DNA of 56,970 nucleotides from an uncultured Lachnospiraceae bacterium (GCA_910578085.1 CAJTPM010000001.1:1-56970); one strand, 5' to 3'; positions 13,574 to 54,114 are shown, numbered from the stretch's first letter. Notes: generated by a model not told the origin, from the letters alone. Numbers and translations are program-made.

Positions 13574-14074
13574 ATGGAAATCGAACGCAAATTTTTATTA
13601 AGAAAGATACCGGAAAACCTGGACAGTTATCCTTACCATTTGATCGAGCAGGCCTATTTATGCGTAACACCTGTTATTCGAATCCGCAGACAGGACGACG
13701 AGTATTATTTGACTTACAAGGGAAGCGGTATGATGAGCCGAGAAGAATATAATCTGCCTTTGACAAAAGAGGCCTATGAACATCTGCTGCCAAAATCTGA
13801 CGGCAATGTCATATCTAAAAAAAGGTATCTGATTCCTTTGTCATCCGAAGAAATCAACCCGGAATGCCTGTCACTTTTGGGTGACACTGCTCTCATCATA
13901 GAACTGGATGAGTTTGCGCCCCCTTTTGCGCCGCTTCTTCTGGCGGAGATAGAATTTCCCACCGAGGAAGCTGCAAACGCCTTTCAGATGCCGGACTGGT
14001 TTTTGGAGGATGTGACTCAGGATGTCAGATACCATAATTCTTATATGTCAGCAATGCATCTTTCCCAGGCATAA
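13574..14074 (+). CDS. CYTH-domain (triphosphate tunnel metalloenzyme) protein
   Basis: N-terminal EIERKFLL motif (CYTH ExExK). 166 aa. Confidence 0.7.
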   Translation: MEIERKFLLRKIPENLDSYPYHLIEQAYLCVTPVIRIRRQDDEYYLTYKGSGMMSREEYNLPLTKEAYEHLLPKSDGNVISKKRYLIPLSSEEINPECLSLLGDTALIIELDEFAPPFAPLLLAEIEFPTEEAANAFQMPDWFLEDVTQDVRYHNSYMSAMHLSQA

Positions 14075-14487: not shown

Positions 14488-15591
14488 TTACCGTCCCGTC
14501 CCCATCATCTTCCCCAGCTGTTCCACGATGCCGGCGCTGCCGTTCACGGAGATCTCGCCGACCTTTTCACAGATCCGCTCCAGATACTCCAGTTCTTTCA
14601 GCTTGTAGAGCGTCTGGTTCTCCTCCATGAGTTTCGCTGTATTGAGGAGCGATCTGGTGGAAGCCACCTCCTCCCTTCTGGAGATAACGTTTGCCTGCGC
14701 CGTCTTCTCCGCTACAAGGACTTTGTTCATGATCTCCCTGATCTCCCCGGGCAGTATGATATCCCTGATGCCGGCGGACACGAAATTCACGCAGAACATG
14801 TTCTCCCGTTCCTTAAGCGCCCCAAAGATCTCTTTGGAGATCCGGTCCTTCGCCTCCAGTATCTCATCCAGCTTGTAGTTACCCACAATCTCCCGGATGG
14901 CCAGCTGCACCGCAGGGTAAAGCTGGGCTTTCAGATCAGAGACCGTCTCCACAAACTCCACCGCATCCCGCACTTTGTACATGCATGCCACGTTCATCCG
15001 AATGCCGATCTTATCCTTTGTCAGGATCTCCTGTCCCAGGATATCTAACTCCTTCTGCTTCATATCGATGACGGTACAGGTCACGATGTGGTTGTAATTC
15101 CAGAACCGGTACACACCCTTAGAGAGCGGCTCCTGCATGACATTGTCGTAGTAGACAAGGCCCACCTCGCCCTCGCCCACCCGTACTTCCGTGTAGTACT
15201 TCATCGGAACCATGGAGAGCATCTGTTTCGTGACCTCTGCGCCGATCAGTGTCTCCTCCATGGAGACAATTTTCATCCCGTACTTGTCAAACACGTTCCA
15301 GAAAACATACTCTTTCCTCGTCGCAAAGGAAGTGAGCTTCCCGTTCATATAGATAAACCCCAGCGAACCGTCCGGTATTTCCATATGTACCGTGGCCTCC
15401 CGAAAGGCGGGATCTCTTTCCAGTATCTGGCAGGGCAGACCCAGATAGTTCATCTCGCCCGACATCTCCTCGATCTGCACCGTATAACCTGCTATCTGAG
15501 GAAAATGATAGGTCCCCGCCGTGATCATTTTCTGAAACACGCCGTTTTTTAATACAAATCCTGCCTGATTATCTCTGATGATATACTTCAT
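14488..15591 (-). CDS. SPFH/band-7 domain protein with N-terminal duplicated beta-rich domains
   Basis: C-terminal half (AVQLAIREIVGNYKLDEIL...EIMNKVLVAEKTAQANVISRREEVASTR...) is typical stomatin/flotillin-like SPFH. Confidence 0.7.
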   Translation of the reverse strand: MKYIIRDNQAGFVLKNGVFQKMITAGTYHFPQIAGYTVQIEEMSGEMNYLGLPCQILERDPAFREATVHMEIPDGSLGFIYMNGKLTSFATRKEYVFWNVFDKYGMKIVSMEETLIGAEVTKQMLSMVPMKYYTEVRVGEGEVGLVYYDNVMQEPLSKGVYRFWNYNHIVTCTVIDMKQKELDILGQEILTKDKIGIRMNVACMYKVRDAVEFVETVSDLKAQLYPAVQLAIREIVGNYKLDEILEAKDRISKEIFGALKERENMFCVNFVSAGIRDIILPGEIREIMNKVLVAEKTAQANVISRREEVASTRSLLNTAKLMEENQTLYKLKELEYLERICEKVGEISVNGSAGIVEQLGKMMGTGR

Positions 15592-16027
15592 CTTGACACC
15601 TCCCTGTATTAATGATCATTTTTCTTTGTTTTTTCTTCAATTACAATACTTTCTATCCCTCATTCATCCATCTTTTGCGGAAAACCGGTTGAGCAGGTTG
15701 TGGGGAGAAAGGACCGTTTGTCCTGATATTTTCTCCGATCCCGCAGATTTATGCTCCGCCTGGCATCTTCTGACTGACAGATCCTGTCAGCAGTATTTGC
15801 CGGACAGATTTCGTCACCCGAAACTGCCCTACAGCTTCTGCCCGGTACGTCTCACCGGACATTCTCTGCCCCGCAGTTTCTATCCGGATGCTGTAAACTG
15901 CCGGATCATCAAAAATATTCTCCACAGACCGCTGTTTCCCCTTCCATCCTGCGGTATCCCCGACCTTCTGGCAAAAGACGGACTGGCATCTGCTTTCGCT
16001 TATGCCTGAAATCGGGATAAAAGTATT

Positions 16028-16165
16028 TGATTTGCGCGGATTCGAACCGCAGACTTTACAGGTCTTGCCATTTTGTTGTGCGCTTTACCAACTAAGCTAC
16101 CGTTTACACGGGAGGGATTTGAACCCCCGAAAACACAAATCCTTCTTAACCCTACGTTAAGTCTG
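16028..16165 (-). ncRNA. Non-canonical tRNA-like RNA with two T-arm modules (candidate Y-RNA-like tRNA mimic, or degenerate tRNA genes)
   Basis: Minus-strand read contains a D-arm-like TAGCTTAGTTGGTAAAGCG, a hairpin agac-CTGTAAA-gtct, T-arm gcgg-TTCGAAT-ccgc, and a second T-arm ggggg-TTCAAAT-ccctc. Acceptor strands cannot be paired and there is no room for a variable loop, so neither copy is a canonical tRNA. Sits 170 nt downstream of rtcB. Confidence 0.4.
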
Positions 16166-16368
16166 GTGAAATATTTATGGCATACCGGACGGCACGCCGC
16201 CGGCACCGCCGGGCAGGAAGTACCTTCCAGATGCCCGCGCGTTATAAATTATTTCCTTCCTTTCATAGCACTGCCACGAATTACCGATGCAGTGCGAAAC
16301 CGTAACCGAATTGCCAGTCTGACTGAAAAATCAACCTCCTGTCTGCTGACAAATTCCTTTTTGGCATA

Positions 16369-17601
16369 CTAGCCCTTCACAACGCCCACAGTCTTTAATT
16401 TCCTCACAGGCGTAACCATATCCTGCTGCTGTTCCATCACCTGATCGATATCCTTGTAAGCGAACCGGCACTCCTCGGCCACATCGTTTTTCTTCCGTTT
16501 TCCCAGCACCACATCCTGCTCCTTCAGATCCACCATAACCTGCTCGATGCTGAACGCTTTCATGGCCCCCGATCTGGAATAGCTTCTGCCCGCCCCGTGG
16601 GAAGAAGTGCAGAAGGATTCTTTATTTCCCTTTCCCTCCACCACATAGCTGTAGGAACCCATGGCCCCGGGTATCACGGCCATCTCTCCTTCGCGTACTC
16701 TTGTGGCTCCTTTTCTGTGCACCCACACATTTTCATGATAGTGATTCTCCAACGATGCATAATTGTGATGGCAGTTGATCTCCTCTCCGAATTCCACGGT
16801 GTGATCCGTATGCTTCTCAATCAGCTCCTTTACCGTCGCGCAGGTCTTATGGAGCATTCGTTCTCTGTTCTCAAAGGCATAATCCAAAGCCAGGTTCATC
16901 CAGTTGATATACTGCTGCCCCTCCGCAGACTGCACAGGCAGGAAGGCCAGATGATACTCATCCTTCACTTCGCTGTACCATGTCTGATTGAGTTCTCTCG
17001 CTATCCCATGGAAGTGATCGCAGATCGCCTTCCCGAGATGGCGGCTTCCGGAATGGATCATGATACACAAAAATCCATCCTGATCCTCCTGCAGCTCAAT
17101 AAAATGATTGCCGCCCCCCAAACTCCCCACCTGAAAGTAACCGTCATCGATCAGGGGCAGAAGCTCCGGATTCTGTTCATATTTTTCCATCTCCTGTTTT
17201 GCCAGGTCAAGCACCGCGGATTCCTGCGGCGTCTTATACCGCTCCGTATTTAACGGAATGGACCGCATGATATTTCCGATAATGGCCTGGATTAACGTCC
17301 CGTTCCCGGTCTGGATCCCACGGATATCCTCCACCCGAATATTGGTCGGCACAAAATCCATACCGCAGCCGATGTCCACGCCCACCGCGTTGGGAATGAC
17401 CACATCCTTCGCCGCAATCACGCCGCCGATGGGCATCCCCTTCCCCGTGTGGGTATCCGGCATCAGGCACACCCATTTATGTAAAAACGGAAGCTGCGAC
17501 AGATGATATGCCTGTTCCAGACAGCTCTCCTCCAGCTGACTGATATCTTTCAACCATATTTTGATTGGTAATCTCGTTTTTTCATTACATATTACAAACA
17601 T
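16369..17601 (-). CDS. rtcB: RNA-splicing ligase RtcB (3'-phosphate/5'-OH RNA ligase)
   Basis: 410 aa with RtcB metal and GMP ligands (PDTHTGKGMPIGGV, GVDIGCGM, NHYHENVWVHRKGA, HGAGR). GAAGGAGG ribosome-binding site. Confidence 0.9.
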   Translation of the reverse strand: MFVICNEKTRLPIKIWLKDISQLEESCLEQAYHLSQLPFLHKWVCLMPDTHTGKGMPIGGVIAAKDVVIPNAVGVDIGCGMDFVPTNIRVEDIRGIQTGNGTLIQAIIGNIMRSIPLNTERYKTPQESAVLDLAKQEMEKYEQNPELLPLIDDGYFQVGSLGGGNHFIELQEDQDGFLCIMIHSGSRHLGKAICDHFHGIARELNQTWYSEVKDEYHLAFLPVQSAEGQQYINWMNLALDYAFENRERMLHKTCATVKELIEKHTDHTVEFGEEINCHHNYASLENHYHENVWVHRKGATRVREGEMAVIPGAMGSYSYVVEGKGNKESFCTSSHGAGRSYSRSGAMKAFSIEQVMVDLKEQDVVLGKRKKNDVAEECRFAYKDIDQVMEQQQDMVTPVRKLKTVGVVKG

Positions 17602-17659
17602 GTTCGCGCCTCCTTCTCTTCGTTTCTTCCGTCTTACGTTTCCTGCTTCTCTCGATCTG

Positions 17660-17705
17660 TGCCTATTATAGGAAACATTTTCCGGAGAATCATTTCAAAA
17701 AAGTT
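17660..17705 (-). promoter_or_regulatory. Candidate rtcB promoter: perfect -10 TATAAT with poor -35
   Basis: Minus-strand TATAAT at 17665-17670 with upstream tgattc. The weak -35 suggests activator dependence. Confidence 0.35.
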
Positions 17706-17803
17706 GCGAAGTGTAGTAAAATATAGATAATATTGAATACAAACGAAATTTTGCAAAACTGATATCGGCAATTTGCCATACATTACATTTAAGGGGAAAA
17801 ATC

Positions 17804-19117
17804 ATGTCCGATTTTCAGGAACTGATAAAAAGTTTTCCAAAAACAAGGGAATACGTCCGGGATTTTTTCGTCTACGGTTTTAAAACCAGAGAGGAATTCA
17901 GGGAAAAAAGCCCCCGCACCTACGACAACGAACGCAGGCGCCTGGAAAGCTGGCTCGGGGATTATGTACGGAAGGACTATGTCTCAAGGAGTTCCAACAT
18001 CTCTCAGGGAGTCAATATCTCCCAGGGAGTCAATATCTCCCAGGGAGTCAATATCTCCCAGGGAGTCAATATCTCCCTTGCTATAGACAGCAACCTTCTC
18101 GACACCAACCCGTTATTTCAGGTATGGAAGACGAAGAGTTTCACCGACAACGATATCGTGCTGCACTTTCTGATACTGGATCTGCTGTCAGACAGCAGAG
18201 AACTGACCGCCGAGGAGATCACGGAACATCTGCTCGATGAATACGAAGCGCTGTTCGATGTTCAGACCGTCAGGAGAAAATGCAATGCCTACGAGAAAGA
18301 GGGCCTGTTACAGAAAAAGAAAGTCGGAAAAACCATTGTCTTTTCTCTGAACCTCTCCCTGATCTCCTGGATAAGAGACCGGGAAAACATGGCGGACGCG
18401 CTTTCTTTTTATCAGATAGCGGAAAGTTTCGGCGTTGTTGGAAATTATCTGACCGAAAAACTGGATCACCGTAATCAAAGCTTCCGGGCAAAACACAGTT
18501 TCTGCGTACATACCCTGGAAGATGAGATCCTCCTGAAGCTTCTGGACGCCATGAACGGGAAGCAGGAAGTGCATCTGGAAATGAAAAGTTCCAGGCGCGG
18601 CACTGCAAATACTGCGGACTGTACGCCCCTGCAGATCTTCACCAGCACAAGAAGCGGCAGACGTTTTCTGTGCGGTTATGTCAAACACAGCAGGCGCTTT
18701 ACCTGTTATCGGCTGGACACGATCAGGACTGTCACACCCCTGCAGCGGTTGCCGAAATATGATGAACTGCTCTCCATACTTGACCGAAACAGAGAACATC
18801 TCTGGGGTGTATCTTTTCATGGCGGCAGCCGCCATCTGGAAAAACTGACTATGAAACTGCAGGTTTTCGCGCCTCGCGAACAGTATATCGTCAACCGCCT
18901 GAAACAGGAAGGCCGGCACGGCACGGTCACAAAACTGGAACAGAACGTCTATCAGTACGAGATTGAGGTCTTCGACTGCAACGAGATGCTGCCCTGGATC
19001 CGCACTTTTATCGGCAGGATCCTGTCGCTCACATGCACGGATAAGTCCGTGGAACAGCTCTTTTATCGGGATCTGCAGACCATGTACCGAATGTATCAGA
19101 TAGAGGAAACAAAATAG
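17804..19117 (+). CDS. WYL-domain transcriptional regulator (HTH-WYL-WCX-like), paralogue 1
   Basis: WYL-like core RRFLCGYVKHSRRFTCYRLDTIRTV (compare GRWYL.AY...FRLDRI). N-terminal HTH-like region. Contains the in-frame ISQGVN tandem repeat. Divergent from rtcB. Confidence 0.6.
   Translation: MSDFQELIKSFPKTREYVRDFFVYGFKTREEFREKSPRTYDNERRRLESWLGDYVRKDYVSRSSNISQGVNISQGVNISQGVNISQGVNISLAIDSNLLDTNPLFQVWKTKSFTDNDIVLHFLILDLLSDSRELTAEEITEHLLDEYEALFDVQTVRRKCNAYEKEGLLQKKKVGKTIVFSLNLSLISWIRDRENMADALSFYQIAESFGVVGNYLTEKLDHRNQSFRAKHSFCVHTLEDEILLKLLDAMNGKQEVHLEMKSSRRGTANTADCTPLQIFTSTRSGRRFLCGYVKHSRRFTCYRLDTIRTVTPLQRLPKYDELLSILDRNREHLWGVSFHGGSRHLEKLTMKLQVFAPREQYIVNRLKQEGRHGTVTKLEQNVYQYEIEVFDCNEMLPWIRTFIGRILSLTCTDKSVEQLFYRDLQTMYRMYQIEETK
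17995..18082 (+). repeat. 18-bp in-frame tandem repeat (~4.7 copies) encoding (N)ISQGV
   Basis: caa(c/t)atctc(t/c)cagggagt repeated head to tail. Three central copies are identical. Confidence 0.9.
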
Positions 19118-19137
19118 CATCATACAGGAGACATAAA

Positions 19138-20283
19138 ATGGAACTCTTCTCAGAAATATACAGCTGTTATTATCAGCTATTACGACATATCCTGTGCAGT
19201 CAGAATGCCCTGACCATGCAGGAGATCCGTGAACAGATCTCTCAGGAAGGCTTTGGAGAAAGTATGCTCTCCATCATCCCCAAACTGGAAGACGGCTCCT
19301 GGAATCTGTTCAAAAAGGATGGGGATCTGTACCGCTCAAAAATCTCCTCTGCCTTCACCGTCCCCCTGTCCGCACTTGAAAAGTCCTATCTCAAAGCGCT
19401 GCTTCTCGATCCCCGCATCGGCCTTTTTCTTGACAGGGAGCAGGTGGAATACCTGCAAAACGCACTGGCTGCGGTCTCCCCTCTCTGGAAACCGGAACAG
19501 TTTTACTGTTTCGACCGGTTTTCGGACGGCGATCCTTACGCCGATGAAAACTACCGCTCCTGTTTCCGCACCCTGCTGCAGGCACAGAAGCAGAACCGGT
19601 ATGTGGACATCGACTACACTTCCCCGAAGGGCAACCGCTTACACCACCACTATGTCCCCGCCCGTCTGGAATACTCGGTGAAAAATGATAAGTTCAGGCT
19701 CCTGGCTCTGCAGCCTGTTTCGTCTTCTTTCGCTCTGCGCTCCCGCGGCAAAAACCGGAATCTTGCACACTGGAAGACCGATGCTCCTTTGATGAATTGC
19801 GCCGCACTGCAGAGCACGCAGGAAAACTCAGTTGATTCCTGCCCGAAGAATAATCTTTCCCGGGCGGATGCAAGTACACTGCGCCATGCGCAGGAAACCA
19901 CGAATTTCAAACTGGAGATCCTCAACATATCCCGCATCCGCAGCGTCAGCCTGCTGGAAAAAAGACTCCCCGCCCCCGCGGATCTGAACGCCATCATCAG
20001 ACGCACCTACTACAGGGAGCCCCTGAAGCTGCGTATCGTCAACAGGCGCAACGCTCTCGAGCGCGCCATGCTGCACTTTGCAAACTATGAAAAAAACACT
20101 ACAAAAATAGATGAGGACACCTACGAATGCCTCATCTACTATAATCAGGGCATGGAGACCGAGTTGTTAATCGAAGTCATGTCCTTCGGCCCCATGCTCC
20201 AGGTGATCGGTAACGACAGATTTTTAAATCTGTTGAAAAACAGGCTGCACAGACAGTATGGTATCGCGCCGTCTGTTCAGTAA
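19138..20283 (+). CDS. WYL-like regulator paralogue 2 (PafC-like partner)
   Basis: 381 aa, 20 nt downstream of paralogue 1. Degenerate WYL-like segment HHHYVPARLEYSVKNDKFRLLALQ. C-terminal region resembles a WCX extension. Confidence 0.45.
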   Translation: MELFSEIYSCYYQLLRHILCSQNALTMQEIREQISQEGFGESMLSIIPKLEDGSWNLFKKDGDLYRSKISSAFTVPLSALEKSYLKALLLDPRIGLFLDREQVEYLQNALAAVSPLWKPEQFYCFDRFSDGDPYADENYRSCFRTLLQAQKQNRYVDIDYTSPKGNRLHHHYVPARLEYSVKNDKFRLLALQPVSSSFALRSRGKNRNLAHWKTDAPLMNCAALQSTQENSVDSCPKNNLSRADASTLRHAQETTNFKLEILNISRIRSVSLLEKRLPAPADLNAIIRRTYYREPLKLRIVNRRNALERAMLHFANYEKNTTKIDEDTYECLIYYNQGMETELLIEVMSFGPMLQVIGNDRFLNLLKNRLHRQYGIAPSVQ

Positions 20284-51814: not shown

Positions 51815-51951
51815 GAAAGTTATTACAACTTCTCCTACCGTGCTTTATAGTATAGCTTCTTACAGGCAATTTTACAGCACAGCGTGGAAAGTTGAAACAC
51901 TTTCATCACTATTTGTGCCGTCAACTGAAAGGCGGCGGAATGGAGATTTTT

Positions 51952-54114
51952 ATGAAATTTCAATCAGTAAAAGAAACAGCAAAGCGTTTCCATATATCAG
52001 AGCGCCGGGTACAGAAACTCTGTGAGACCGGCAGAATTGACGGCGCCCGGATGGTCAGCAATGTCTGGTTGATACCGGACACTGCGACGAAACCGGCGGA
52101 CGAGCGCACTGTCATTGGTGACAAAGATTTACTCTCACTTTCTGATTTGTGCAGGGAACTATCCATTTCGACAGCTACCGGACGTAATTGGCTAAAACTT
52201 GGAAAACTGGCACCGTCTTCTGAAATAAAGAAAACGCCCTTTTTCAGCAGGGAATATGCCATTCAAATGAAAGCTGACATTGCGAATGGAAAAAACGCCG
52301 CCTTAAAAAGCCGTCGGAACAAAAAATACGTTTCCGGCAACACCCTTTACCGCTCCTATGTATCGGACACCTCCTCCAACCTGTCAGCGGTGCAGGCTGT
52401 TCTTGACTGCATAGAAGAAAAAAGCATCGAAATCACAGATGAGATACTGCATATGCTCATCGCCGAATGTGCGGTTCAGCTCATATTAAATAAAAACCAT
52501 GATAAAACATCTTCTGATTGTCTGTCGGGGTATCTTCATGGAACATTAAAAAGTAAATCCTTACCCCTGGTTGATGATCTGATCTCTCCCTATCCTCAGA
52601 TCGACAGAGTGGTTGGTCTGCATACAGACCTGTTAAACATAAAATATCAATATGAAGAGGGAGAAGATCTGTTGGGTCTTCTTTACATATCGTTGAAAAA
52701 TATCGGCAACAGAAAAGCTACTGGTTCCTACTACACGCCCACCGCCGTGGTGCAAAAATTGTGCCGCCGCCTTTTTTCCATAAATGAAGCTTCCGGAAAA
52801 GATGTACTTGATCCGTGCTGCGGGACAGGAAACTTTCTTCTTCAGCTCCCGCCGCAGATCGGGTTTGAACATGTCTACGGAAATGACAATGATCCCGTCA
52901 GCGTAAAAATTGCCAGAATCAATTTCTCGCTGAAATATGGTATTTCCGATCCGGCCGTCATCTATTCGCACATTACGGAGAGAGACTATCTTTCTTCCGA
53001 TCCTGCGCGGCAATTCGATTTTATCATCGGCAATCCGCCCTGGGGTTATGATTTTACCGCGCCACAAAAAACGCAGCTGAGAAGCAGATTTAAATCTGCC
53101 GCAGGCAACAGTATAGAATCTTATGACGTATTTGTGGAGCAGGCTTTGTCTGACTTAAAAGAGGGCGGAATACTTTCCTTTGTTTTGCCGGAAGCTATTT
53201 TAAATGTCAAGACCCATACGCCGATCCGCGGTATCATACTGGAACGCTGTGCCTTTCAGTACCTGGAATTTCTGGGAAATGCTTTTGATCAGGTACAGTG
53301 CCCCTGCATTATTTTACAGGCTGTCTGCACTGAAACCACATTTCGCAGTCAGGATATGCTGGTCTTTGACGGAACCCACGAATACTCCATTCAGTGCGAA
53401 CGCAAAGTAAATGCAGATTGTTTCAGCTTTTCCACGACAGACGAGGAATACCATATTTTGGAGAAAATGGACAACCTGCAGGGCAAACTCACTCTGCGCG
53501 GGAACGCTGACTTTGCGCTGGGAATTGCTACCGGTAACAATAAAGATTATATTTCTCAGACAAAAAGTAAAGAAAATGAAATGATCCTGAAAGGATCTGA
53601 TCTGCGGAAATTCAGATTTACCCCTTCTGAAAATTACATTGTATTCAACCCGGAATCCTTTCAACAGGTCGCACCCACCGAATATTACCGCGCTCCCGAA
53701 AAGCTGCTGTACCGCTTCATCTGCAAGCAGCTGGTTTTTGCATACGATAACAGACAGATATTGTCTTTAAACAGCTGTAATATCCTGATCCCGAAAATAC
53801 ATGATTTCAGTATAAAATATATTCTGGCTGTCTTAAATTCCAGAACCGTTCAGTTTTATTTTCGAAAACAGTTTAACTCCGTTAAGGTGCTGCGGGCCCA
53901 CCTTGAAAGGCTGCCCATAGCGTTTACGGATACAGATTCCCAGAATCAGGTTGTAAACATAGTCGACGGTATTCTCGAAACCTCTGATAAAACCACTGTT
54001 ACTGATCTGTACAATGAACTTGACAGGAAAATTGCCGATCTCTATGGATTGACTCCCGAGGAATATCGTATCGTCAAATCCACCATGGAGGATGAAAATT
54101 TATTTCTTTACTGA
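51952..54114 (+). CDS. N6-adenine DNA methyltransferase (gamma-class, NPPW) with N-terminal HTH_17 domain and C-terminal TRD
   Basis: Motif I DPCCGTGNFLL, motif IV IIGNPPWGY. N-terminus MKFQSVKETAKRFHISERRVQKLCETGRI...WLIP is homologous to the small HTH protein at 35134-35325. ATG at 51952 has a GGAG ribosome-binding site. Confidence 0.8.
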   Translation: MKFQSVKETAKRFHISERRVQKLCETGRIDGARMVSNVWLIPDTATKPADERTVIGDKDLLSLSDLCRELSISTATGRNWLKLGKLAPSSEIKKTPFFSREYAIQMKADIANGKNAALKSRRNKKYVSGNTLYRSYVSDTSSNLSAVQAVLDCIEEKSIEITDEILHMLIAECAVQLILNKNHDKTSSDCLSGYLHGTLKSKSLPLVDDLISPYPQIDRVVGLHTDLLNIKYQYEEGEDLLGLLYISLKNIGNRKATGSYYTPTAVVQKLCRRLFSINEASGKDVLDPCCGTGNFLLQLPPQIGFEHVYGNDNDPVSVKIARINFSLKYGISDPAVIYSHITERDYLSSDPARQFDFIIGNPPWGYDFTAPQKTQLRSRFKSAAGNSIESYDVFVEQALSDLKEGGILSFVLPEAILNVKTHTPIRGIILERCAFQYLEFLGNAFDQVQCPCIILQAVCTETTFRSQDMLVFDGTHEYSIQCERKVNADCFSFSTTDEEYHILEKMDNLQGKLTLRGNADFALGIATGNNKDYISQTKSKENEMILKGSDLRKFRFTPSENYIVFNPESFQQVAPTEYYRAPEKLLYRFICKQLVFAYDNRQILSLNSCNILIPKIHDFSIKYILAVLNSRTVQFYFRKQFNSVKVLRAHLERLPIAFTDTDSQNQVVNIVDGILETSDKTTVTDLYNELDRKIADLYGLTPEEYRIVKSTMEDENLFLY

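Follow-up and report, generated by a model that had tools for sequence, protein, structure and literature searches.

A probable RNA-repair module of gut Clostridia comprising rtcB, a large tRNA-like RNA, a Band-7 gene and paired WYL regulators

Related RNA-repair systems and the composition of the locus

RNA-repair systems made up of RtcB, a Band-7 protein and a tRNA-like RNA were predicted by Burroughs and Aravind in 2016, as quoted in a later paper that describes RtcB beside Ro60/YrlA as well as beside Band-7 together with a tRNA-like RNA (10.1101/312249). WYL factors sensing cyclic-phosphate RNA are said, by the same laboratory, to regulate RNA-repair pathways (PMC9503650). A further relative is the Salmonella rsr-yrlBA-rtcBA operon, whose regulator RtcR senses tRNA fragments (PMC7790460).

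The DNA analyzed here (the window) is a stretch of 56,970 nt from an uncultured Lachnospiraceae bacterium (GCA_910578085.1 CAJTPM010000001.1:1-56970). It probably (about 70%) carries an RNA-repair module of gut Clostridia with five parts: rtcB, a large RNA, a Band-7 gene, two WYL genes and a box between the two units (Table 1). The cluster appears to belong to the Burroughs-Aravind systems, as these are relayed by the citing paper, and has in common with them an RtcB gene adjoining Band-7 and a tRNA-like non-coding RNA as well as, in Oscillospiraceae, RlaP; a preliminary description of this DNA had called the system uncharacterised, but systems of this kind had already been predicted (10.1101/312249). 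The RNA component seems to differ, since the b7a-tRNA is described in that source as strongly resembling an authentic tRNA, whereas the RNA studied here always adjoins Band-7 yet is not callable as a tRNA, its tRNA-like part being a YrlA-type permuted module within a multi-domain RNA of 430 to 610 nt. Relative to the general WYL proposal and to the 2016 prediction as cited, what is new is the RNA's size and architecture, along with the operator and the pairing of two regulators. The function of the cluster we infer from sequence. Like the Salmonella operon, the locus would join RtcB to a tRNA-mimicking RNA, an RNA-binding ring or scaffold protein and a ligand-sensing regulator; in contrast to it, Band-7 occupies the place of Ro60, RtcA is missing among the scanned ORFs, and two WYL factors with a sigma-70-type promoter replace the CARF protein RtcR and sigma-54.

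Table 1. Features of the locus, in window coordinates
Feature	Position	Strand	Basis
SPFH/Band-7 (slipin-type) protein, 367 aa	14488..15591	-	Pfam Band_7, 97 bits; strict RNA co-occurrence
Large structured non-coding RNA that occupies the spacer between rtcB and Band-7, 611 nt here, conserved core ~430 nt	~15645..16255	-	Conserved blocks, covariation, CM R1
3' rod-like domain, closing helix 16027-16014 / 15659-15645	15645..16027	-	RNAalifold and pair counts
T-arm 2 (GCGG UUCGAAU CCGC)	16036..16050	-	Rfam tRNA match, conservation, covariation
Anticodon-stem-loop-like hairpin, AGAC(CUGUAAA)GUCU	16051..16065	-	Stem covariation; loop statistics
YrlA-like tRNA-elbow module, four-way junction	16076..16138	-	Rfam YrlA positions 23-88; covariation
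Closing stem of the elbow module, UUGUG/CACAA	within 16076..16138	-	
D-arm of the elbow module	16082-16097	-	
Closed acceptor-like hairpin of the elbow module	16100-16111	-	
T-arm 1 of the elbow module	16112-16128	-	
P3 hairpin, CUUAAC...GUUAAG	16145..16161	-	6/6 pairs with compensatory changes
5' three-way junction: closing helix P0, hairpins P1 and P2, including near-invariant CUGCCCGGCGGUGCC	16168..16255	-	Covariation
rtcB, 3'-phosphate/5'-OH RNA ligase, 410 aa	16369..17601	-	Pfam RtcB, 363 bits; catalytic motifs in translation
rtcB -10 hexamer, TATAAT	17665..17670	-	Kept in 62 loci
Invariant asymmetric 23-bp box ATCATTTCAAAAAAGTTGCGAAG, predicted WYL-pair operator	17689..17711	.	Conserved in 62 loci
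WYL1, wHTH-WYL-WCX regulator, 437 aa, N-terminal extension of ~110 aa	17804..19117	+	Pfam WYL; fold match to DriD, PafBC
WYL2, second wHTH-WYL-WCX regulator, 381 aa, WYL domain split by an insert	19138..20283	+	Homologue Pfam matches; fold match

The preliminary description placed the locus at 16028-20283, a span that takes in rtcB and the WYL genes and leaves out the 3' two-thirds of the RNA together with the Band-7 gene, which it had overlooked. Its divergent arrangement of rtcB and two adjacent wHTH-WYL-WCX regulator genes is borne out by Pfam and fold matches. The gene-neighbourhood comparison that it had called for ties the WYL genes tightly to rtcB: of 80 species-level loci, 72 have WYL2 following WYL1, and 61 have a divergent rtcB within 700 nt. 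Loci of Lachnospiraceae have the order Band7-RNA-RtcB and, divergently, WYL1-WYL2, and those of Oscillospiraceae the order WYL-WYL-RNA-Band7-RtcB(-RlaP), with a 4-nt overlap between the WYL genes and a nucleotidyltransferase, RlaP, also present. The rtcB gene is intact; its product gives a full-length match to PF01139 (residues 30-410 on profile positions 1-426), and the translation contains DIGCG, HSGSR, CHHNY and HGAGR, which we take, from RtcB structures, to be the metal-binding Cys/His and GMP-accepting His motifs. The claimed absence of RtcR and sigma-54 also holds in domain and promoter scans of the window. No Sigma54_activat, TROVE or RtcA domain was detected among 29 window ORFs, including every ORF of at least 400 aa, no -24/-12 promoter was matched within 17602-17803, and the scanned sequence thus offers no CARF-AAA+ activator with a -24/-12 promoter of the RtcR/sigma-54 rtc operon type.

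A large structured RNA and its coupling to Band-7

The RNA that fills the spacer between rtcB and Band-7 is scored at 250.9 bits by the covariance model CM R1 and matches no family in Rfam 15. The tRNA-like element with two T-arms reported earlier downstream of rtcB is present, both T-arms being conserved in 61 loci, but it is a module of a structured RNA of about 600 nt, of which a small part had been noticed; the spacing given then, 170 nt, is replaced by 231 nt from the rtcB stop to the tRNA-like core and 114 nt to the structured RNA. Compensatory variation is heavy over about 130 base pairs of the RNA. In alignment A4 (MAFFT), 95.2% were paired, against 39-44% when slid, and 23 pairs were compensatory, against 5-12 when slid, a count reached in none of 500 shuffles. 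Alignment A6, which consists of divergent sequences and leans towards the structure because it was fitted to the model, gave compensatory changes at 57 of 66 pairs and in 502 cells (74-99 when slid); in the divergent set such changes were found at 11/11 pairs of P0 and 12/13 of P1. The 3' domain folded by RNAalifold comprises 63 pairs, with 86.6% paired (38-46% when slid) and compensatory change in 340 cells (86-144 when slid), and in one locus (L050) an indel in one strand of the closing helix is matched by one in the other. The frequent G-U pairs establish that the sense strand of the RNA is the rtcB strand. Individual parts vary: the 3' rod bears a lineage-specific insert of ~180 nt at one hairpin tip (about 15743-15923), the tip of the acceptor-like hairpin is expanded in three loci (L040, L056 and L077), and the elbow module is duplicated in another (L044).

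A tRNA gene with a cloverleaf and a 7-bp acceptor stem is rejected for this element. ARAGORN found 0 tRNAs, Rfam returned nothing for the element at gathering score, and in E-value mode the tRNA model (RF00005) reached 24.7 bits against a gathering score of 29 over 16100-16034, without the acceptor stem. The same silence of ARAGORN and Rfam would suit a degenerate tRNA gene or a fortuitous likeness without function, an idea of negligible probability that is refuted by the covariation of the helices, as compensatory base changes occur in every helix across >100 loci. The best Rfam match, in E-value mode, is YrlA (RF02553; 34.8 bits, gathering 69, E=1.2e-5, 16136-16075). Model positions 23-88, corresponding to the T/AS/D module, are aligned with covarying helices, and in both RNAs a four-way junction carries the T-arm, the closed acceptor-like hairpin and the D-arm in the same permuted order. 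This match, together with the report that YrlA is occasionally adjacent to Band-7 (10.1101/312249), would fit a true Y RNA whose partner Ro60/Rsr is encoded elsewhere in the genome. That origin is quite improbable: the score is half of the gathering threshold and the tRNA-like module alone is aligned, the Ro60-binding stem (model positions 1-22 and 89-114) being left out; no YrlA call passed the gathering score in any of 10 related loci; TROVE genes are absent from the scanned window ORFs and from four Pfam-annotated loci (L001 and L205-L207); and the strict coupling is with Band-7. In addition, the window RNA differs from YrlA in its extra 5' and 3' domains, its anticodon-like hairpin and its second T-arm.

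The anticodon-like loop has 7 nt in 43 of 58 cases and another length in 15, so this length is not strictly kept. Among the 43 seven-nucleotide loops, U33 is found in 41, G34 in 32, U35 in 33 and A37 in 40. The triplet U33-G34-U35 is a signature of Tyr, His, Asn and Asp tRNAs. Ornate RNAs such as OLE, GOLLD, ROOL and raiA are of the same size class as the window RNA and resemble it in their many covarying helices and narrow phyletic range, and OLE has a fixed protein-gene partner, OapA, as the window RNA has its own; the RNA described here matches none of these four in Rfam and, unlike them, contains a tRNA-like core and sits in a repair operon.

RNA and Band-7 gene occur together in 54 loci and are jointly missing from 12, with no locus carrying one alone, and the RNA is accompanied by Band-7 in 45/45 metagenome loci. 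The 12 loci lacking both retain rtcB and the WYL pair, so a ribonucleoprotein (RNP) of RNA and Band-7 would not be needed for RtcB itself. The Band-7 protein has no evident membrane segment. We tentatively propose, at less than even odds, that the RNA represents a new large-RNA class in obligate partnership with a soluble SPFH/Band-7 oligomer, that their RNP is a tRNA-mimicking platform for RtcB or a nuclease bait, and that its cleavage products are the ligand of a heterodimeric WYL activator. If true, the RNP would be a bacterial counterpart to Ro60-Y RNA or to vault particles and would expose a tRNA elbow along with a mimic of the anticodon loop, in which U33-G34-U35 is frequent.

The RNA invariably precedes Band-7 directly and on its strand, ending ~50 nt before the start codon, a position that would also be expected of a cis-acting leader that governs translation or stability of the Band-7 mRNA and forms no part of a trans-acting RNP; neither a promoter nor a terminator of its own was detected for the RNA, and no terminator-like site was found between rtcB and band7. 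We consider a leader rather unlikely, given a core of 430 to 610 nt with a tRNA-elbow mimic like that of Ro60-bound YrlA. Moreover, none of the conserved helices masks the ribosome-binding site, the linker to band7 being A-rich and variable, and an expression-platform-like alternative pairing was not found in the RNA, except for one local alternative for UAUCCC.

The paired WYL regulators and the 23-bp box

PafBC of actinobacteria and DriD of Caulobacter are wHTH-WYL-WCX activators triggered by ssDNA, and BrxR and CapW are described as repressors that leave DNA on ligand binding. WYL1 matches Pfam WYL at 23.2 bits (cutoff, 21.8), and its AF2 model matches DriD, PafBC, CapW and BrxR over the full length (Foldseek, E=9e-10). 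The window copy of WYL2, in which a low-complexity insert of ~55 aa interrupts the WYL domain, has no Pfam match of its own, while 11 of 21 close homologues do match Pfam WYL, so that the WYL domains expected earlier were recovered directly for WYL1 and through homologues for WYL2. The WYL2 model matches DriD and PafBC over the full length (Foldseek, E=1.6e-8), with BrxR and CapW also among the fold matches. Both models, of low overall pLDDT (59 and 55) with cores at 70-90, support a whole-chain architecture of winged helix, WYL and WCX. The two genes had been described as paralogous and PafB/PafC-like. Paralogy finds no backing in sequence comparison (BLASTP E=0.6; hhalign probability 0.2%); the likeness to PafB/PafC stands for the modelled three-domain fold and the pairing of adjacent genes and fails for sequence; in a PDB profile search, WYL1 gave E=0.83, and WYL2 matched nothing. 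A WYL1-WYL2 heteromer is plausible, with indirect hints in the adjacency of the genes (72 of 80 loci), their 4-nt overlap in Oscillospiraceae and the asymmetry of the operator. As in PafBC and DriD, the promoter has a good -10, and the predicted site falls in its -35 region; unlike them, the WYL pair has no detectable sequence similarity to these proteins, a different operator (the box is unrelated to RecA-NDp) and, as its predicted target, an RNA-repair operon in place of a DNA-damage regulon.

The box occurs once in the window. In the rtcB promoter it occupies the -35 region, and on the other side it closely precedes the -10 of WYL1; it overlaps both promoters and is retained where WYL1 identity falls to 35-50%. 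The rtcB promoter is as first described, with a perfect -10 and a poor -35: the -35 position (17688-17693), which overlaps the box, reads ATGATT with 3/6 matches, and the -10 has no TG extension. This combination typically marks promoters that depend on an activator and suggests such dependence for rtcB. The tight linkage of the WYL genes to rtcB and the persistence of an invariant box down to 35% WYL1 identity argue for an rtcB unit independent of RtcR and under WYL control, a prediction that is well founded at the sequence level.

The sign of this control is less certain, as the overlap of the box with both promoters fits a repressor as well as an activator. Within the same module, the WYL pair could repress from the box, blocking both divergent promoters until released by a ligand; BrxR and CapW among the fold matches and an inverted repeat in the rtcB spacer (GGAAAcatTTTCC) are compatible with such repression, which we nevertheless judge doubtful, since the activators DriD and PafBC come first among the fold matches and the promoter has the features of activator dependence given above. 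Under activation, WYL1 and WYL2 would form a heterodimer on the box, each protein contacting one half-site, and would make up for the poor -35 in the manner of PafBC and DriD. Once bound to a nucleic-acid damage signal, for which RNA fragments ending in a 2',3'-cyclic phosphate are the likeliest candidate and ssDNA the alternative, the pair would turn on rtcB, the RNA and band7 as a single transcript and would autoregulate. The RNA may then be excised from the transcript and join an oligomeric Band-7 scaffold; the resulting RNP could offer a tRNA-shaped surface that helps RtcB to find or hold broken tRNAs, as the Ro60-Y RNA would beside Salmonella RtcB, or could act as a bait for anticodon nucleases.

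The box also marks the system beyond this locus, with system genes present on 96 of 118 metagenome stretches bearing it. In loci without rtcB (L282 and others), the box lies ~55 nt from the 5' end of the RNA, and therefore the box promoter would drive the RNA directly.

The RtcB, WYL, and Band-7 genes

The rtcB ORF encodes a full-length RtcB (Pfam, 363 bits), and its translation shows the catalytic motifs DIGCG, HSGSR, CHHNY, and HGAGR. Two co-directional ORFs, WYL1 and WYL2, are divergent from rtcB. The preliminary description had read these as two adjacent WYL-type genes, which the fold matches of both regulators bear out, and had expected WYL domains by HMM search. That expectation held narrowly for WYL1 (23.2 bits versus a Pfam threshold of 21.8) but not for WYL2 itself, which has no Pfam or NCBIfam match, although the domain was detected in 11 of 21 close WYL2 homologues. 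NCBIfam offered no useful name for either protein. AlphaFold models of the two regulators have confident cores and low overall pLDDT. Profile searches against PDB sequences found nothing significant with either protein; only fold comparison succeeded, giving whole-chain matches to DriD, PafBC, CapW, and BrxR (WYL2, E = 1.6e-8; WYL1, E = 9e-10). Based on the homologue WYL matches and these modeled folds, both are wHTH-WYL-WCX regulators. Calling the pair paralogous was an assumption, since no similarity between WYL1 and WYL2 is detectable (BLASTP E = 0.6; hhalign probability, 0.2%).

Both regulator genes show local length variation. An 18-nt tandem repeat in WYL1 (17995-18077; 4.6 copies, 96% matches) encodes NISQGV repeats, a unit that is single copy in WYL1 homologues (413 aa versus 437 aa in the window). 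The alignment places a low-complexity insert of ~55 residues mid-domain in the window copy of WYL2; this lineage-specific insert (aa 196-254, window about 19723-19899) splits the WYL domain and is very variable in length among close homologues, reaching ~100 aa in the homologue P0141.

The next same-strand gene after rtcB encodes an SPFH/Band-7 protein (Pfam, 97 bits) with no obvious membrane segment. It had been overlooked in the preliminary description, whose rtcB, WYL, and tRNA-like parts stand. A scan of species-representative genomes found at least 259 species with a WYL1 relative; the locus is a sharply defined and widespread version of an RtcB system with RNA-protein companions in gut Clostridia. 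The best 80 of these at least 259 relatives, whose loci were analysed, are all from Lachnospiraceae (59 to 76% identity), and nearly all have Band-7, the RNA, and rtcB on one strand, with rtcB divergent from WYL1 and then WYL2. In 72 of the 80 loci WYL2 comes next after WYL1, and in 61 a divergent rtcB lies no more than 700 nt away. Cultured carriers include Sporofaciens musculi, Petralouisia muris, Roseburia sp. 1XD42-69, and Lachnospiraceae JLR.KK009. The order in Oscillospiraceae is two WYL genes with a 4-nt overlap, a gap of ~500 nt, Band-7, RtcB, and often an RlaP nucleotidyltransferase; one Oscillospiraceae locus is without the WYL pair.

Fold and distribution of the RNA

A tRNA-like element was correctly recognized downstream of rtcB, but it is part of a far larger RNA: alignment of 50 rtcB-Band-7 spacers shows conserved blocks almost throughout, separated by insertions of variable length. 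In the window, ARAGORN found no tRNA and Rfam gave no match at gathering thresholds. A permissive Rfam search gave sub-threshold matches to YrlA, a tRNA-mimicking Y RNA (positions 23-88, 34.8 bits, E = 1.2e-5, at 16136-16075), and to the tRNA family (24.7 bits, at 16100-16034), and Rfam 15 holds no family matching the RNA beyond these two. The order of the tRNA-like parts, read from both matches combined, includes the two T-arms that had been claimed. The 3′ half folds into an elongated, irregular rod of 63 predicted pairs. A lineage-specific insert at a hairpin tip in the 3′ domain accounts for ~180 nt (window about 15743-15923, minus strand) and is absent or much shorter in most relatives.

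Features of the locus (window positions).
Feature	Position	Strand	Remark
Band-7 gene	14488-15591	-	SPFH/Band-7
Structured RNA	~16255 to 15645	-	611 nt
Three-way junction P0/P1/P2	16168-16255	-	RNA 5′ half
Hairpin P3	16145-16161	-	RNA 5′ half
YrlA-like four-way junction			RNA 5′ half, after P3, before anticodon-like hairpin and T-arm 2
Closing stem UUGUG/CACAA		-	first in tRNA-like order
T-arm 1	16112-16128	-
Closed acceptor-like hairpin	16100-16111	-
D-arm	16082-16097	-
Hairpin with 7-nt anticodon-like loop	16051-16065	-
T-arm 2	16036-16050	-
Rod closing helix	16027-16014 with 15659-15645	-	AAUACUUUUAUCCC with GGGAUAGAAAGUAUU
rtcB	16369-17601	-
rtcB -10 TATAAT	17670-17665	-	perfect
The box (predicted operator)	17689-17711		23 bp
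WYL1	17804-19117	+
WYL2	19138-20283	+

The 66-pair structure of the 5′ half was scored on 38 sequences aligned independently with MAFFT, in which 95.2% of pairs are standard (39 to 44% with the partners slid) and two-sided changes occur in 23 pairs; sliding gave 5 to 12 such pairs and shuffling 10 ± 2, and none of 500 shuffles reached 23. Most helices were also recovered by RNAalifold on its own, with hardly any pairs broken. The rod is 86.6% paired versus 38 to 46% slid, with 340 cells of compensatory change versus 86 to 144 slid and 112 ± 11 shuffled; its closing helix displays A-U to G-C and C-G to U-A exchanges and, in L050, a one-base deletion matched in both strands. A model-fitted alignment of 45 metagenome loci gave compensatory change in 57 of the 66 pairs, 502 compensatory cells versus 74 to 99 slid, and support for every helix, a count biased towards the structure by the fitting, of which the MAFFT result is independent. 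Covariation in the aligned sequences thus establishes the fold of the RNA, and the numerous G-U pairs assign its sense strand to the rtcB strand.

Two other pairings were rejected. The local pairing UAUCCC/GGGGAUA (intergenic positions 409-414) gave way as closing helix to the distal partner (710-722), for which compensatory changes and a matched indel speak, and the helix UUUCAGGC/GCCUGAAG was dropped because L079 has a change that favours the competing GGCA/UGCC hairpin. A hairpin GCACUGC...GCAGUGC between the rtcB stop and the conserved RNA start (16269-16296, minus strand) has no U-run and lies in a region not conserved in other loci. In Roseburia sp. 1XD42-69, the module of T-arm, acceptor hairpin, and D-arm is tandemly duplicated (L044:6194-6483, minus strand).

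The anticodon-like hairpin has a 7-nt loop in 43 of 58 sequences and other lengths in 15. The 43 loops mostly carry U33 (41), G34 (32), U35 (33), and A37 (40), the "anticodons" are mostly GUA and GUC, and UGU occurs in 28. UGU at positions 33 to 35 marks queuosine-family tRNAs, is the element recognized by Tgt, and characterizes the target class of colicin E5. The loop signature is a lead rather than a finding, given that the sequences are mutually related and 15 loops differ in length. A tRNA mimic embedded in a repair-operon RNA would bear on the recognition or baiting of tRNA-directed toxins.

A covariance model of the 5′ half (R1; 233 positions) matches the window once (250.9 bits) and gives strong matches in 60 of the 80 genome loci. 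Where rtcB is present and at least 1.8 kb of sequence follows it, the RNA and Band-7 are both present in 54 loci, both absent in 12, and never found one without the other; in L055, a remnant of hairpin P2 still follows rtcB. All 45 metagenome loci with Band-7 (45 to 82% identical) have an R1 match upstream of it, and in all four Oscillospiraceae loci the best match (12 to 20 bits) is just upstream of Band-7 on its strand. The RNA thus appears to be strictly coupled to Band-7 across the loci compared.

RtcB can be found apart from the RNA and Band-7: in 12 genome loci rtcB and the WYL pair are retained and the RNA and Band-7 are absent, and L071 has the RNA and Band-7 with rtcB absent. In public gene calls, the Band-7 ORF is extended upstream by 130 to 270 codons over the RNA region (L206:7001-8491, L207:7001-8917), so the RNA is annotated as protein in databases. 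Weak R1 matches 3′ of Band-7 in L079 and L036, considered as second RNA copies, are ordinary tRNA gene arrays. Ordinary same-strand tRNA genes within 1 kb after Band-7 occur in 15 of 81 loci, compared with ~3 expected from overall tRNA density; they comprise Glu/Cys, Glu-Met-Asp-Val-Leu arrays, and Tyr/Ser, with cases in three clades (among them L036, L079, L041, L050, L054, L042, L035, L037, L230, L212, and L239) and none in the window.

The predicted operator and the proposed working of the locus

The rtcB promoter combines a perfect -10 with a poor -35 (ATGATT, 3 of 6 matches), in agreement with the preliminary description. Across 62 loci, the divergent spacer holds an invariant core ATTATA, a spacer of ~18 nt, ATCATTTCAAAAAAGTTGCGAAC, and then a TGnTATAaT-like element. 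The box, a predicted operator of the WYL pair, spans the rtcB -35 position and upstream and, on the other strand, lies immediately upstream of the WYL1 -10. It is single copy in the window and lacks dyad symmetry, as would suit a pair of unlike DNA-binding subunits. When metagenomes were scanned with a slightly degenerate box, at least 118 stretches were found; among the matches listed, 96 have RtcB, WYL1, WYL2, or Band-7 beside the box, many with WYL1 only 35 to 50% and RtcB 60 to 70% identical, and the remaining 22 resemble chance or truncated matches. RNA-Band-7 faces the box directly in several loci, with no rtcB between them and the RNA starting ~55 nt from the box, which argues that the predicted box promoter drives the RNA. 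Eight metagenome loci (L282, L289, L259, L235, L302, L272, L211, and L270) show this variant architecture, with no RtcB detectable in the stretch. The spacer between the rtcB -10 and the box holds the inverted repeat GGAAAcatTTTCC (17671-17683), which only some of the Lachnospiraceae loci conserve. Viral contigs contain the 15-mer CTGCCCGGCGGTGCC in at least 120 stretches; those listed are chance matches in GC-rich phage DNA, with no RNA or protein similarity to the locus.

To our knowledge, bacterial RtcB has no agreed physiological substrate, and what its RNA-protein companions (Ro60/Y RNA and Band-7/tRNA-like RNA) do is so far a matter of prediction. Structured RNAs this large are, as far as we know, rare, and every new class so far has revealed new biology. 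The locus offers directly testable handles in a 23-bp predicted operator, a candidate pair of sensor proteins, and an RNA constrained by ~130 covarying pairs. It is of real interest for the RNA-repair and structured-RNA fields, its function being proposed by analogy.

The system had been described as uncharacterised, but its kind was already predicted: in some bacteria the RtcB gene adjoins a Band-7 protein and a predicted "band-7-associated tRNA" (Burroughs and Aravind 2016, as related by Wang et al., 10.1101/312249). With RtcB beside Band-7 and a tRNA-like RNA, the present locus falls in that predicted class. YrlA occasionally adjoins Band-7 (10.1101/312249), and a literature search on YrlA in Lachnospiraceae found nothing relevant. 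Control of RNA repair by WYL proteins is likewise in the literature as a prediction, in which WYL factors sense cyclic-phosphate RNA (PMC9503650). Three features appear to be new: the RNA as a multi-domain structure of 430 to 610 nt with a YrlA-type module, absent from Rfam; its strict coupling to Band-7; and the conserved asymmetric predicted operator with a paired-WYL architecture common to divergent Clostridia.

The comparisons establish the component parts and their conserved linkage, how the RNA folds, and where the predicted operator lies. Most likely, by analogy, WYL1 and WYL2 would bind the box together as a heterodimer and, once they sense a product of nucleic-acid damage, activate rtcB-RNA-band7 and their own genes; the RNA would be released and bound by a Band-7 oligomer, and this RNP would assist RtcB on broken tRNAs or serve as bait. 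The analogies are the Ro60/YrlA/RtcB operon with its fragment-sensing regulator RtcR (PMC7790460), the published WYL proposal, and PafBC and DriD, which are ssDNA-triggered activators and the best fold matches of WYL1 and WYL2. The last of these speaks for activation; repression by the WYL pair is a live alternative. That the RNA, which lies upstream of Band-7 on its strand, is a purely cis-acting leader is less likely than the trans-acting RNP modeled on Ro60/YrlA.

Surroundings of the locus and other Band-7 loci

RtcR (Sigma54_activat), Ro60 (TROVE), and RtcA domains are absent from the 29 window ORFs scanned, including all ORFs of at least 400 aa, and the rtcB-WYL1 spacer has no sigma-54 -24/-12 match, as the preliminary description had noted for RtcR and sigma-54. 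The rest of the window is ordinary chromosome with starch/glycogen genes, two-component systems, and transporters. The neighbouring CYTH and DUF5655 genes were rejected as module members because they are not conserved in other loci; the CYTH-domain (triphosphate tunnel) gene (13574-14074, plus strand), convergent with Band-7, is beside the module in 0 of 80 related loci.

A tRNA-Pro in a Subdoligranulum locus was considered as the band-7-associated tRNA and rejected, being an ordinary tRNA that lies 2.8 kb upstream of Band-7; no tRNA is present in L205 to L207, which are Oscillospiraceae loci. The slipin, nucleotidyltransferase, and zeta-toxin-like kinase genes of E. coli, between yjbD and lysC in the WAT chromosome (L204:1501-5060), belong to a different Band-7 system with no RtcB, R1 match, or tRNA. 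They occur in about a quarter of E. coli genomes (1,425 of 5,426), and a 530-nt unannotated stretch lies upstream of the slipin gene. Elsewhere in the window (51892-54114, plus strand), there is a 740-aa N6-adenine methylase of the Eco57I/TaqI type that carries an HTH_17 domain at its N terminus and may represent a restriction-modification enzyme of type IIG.
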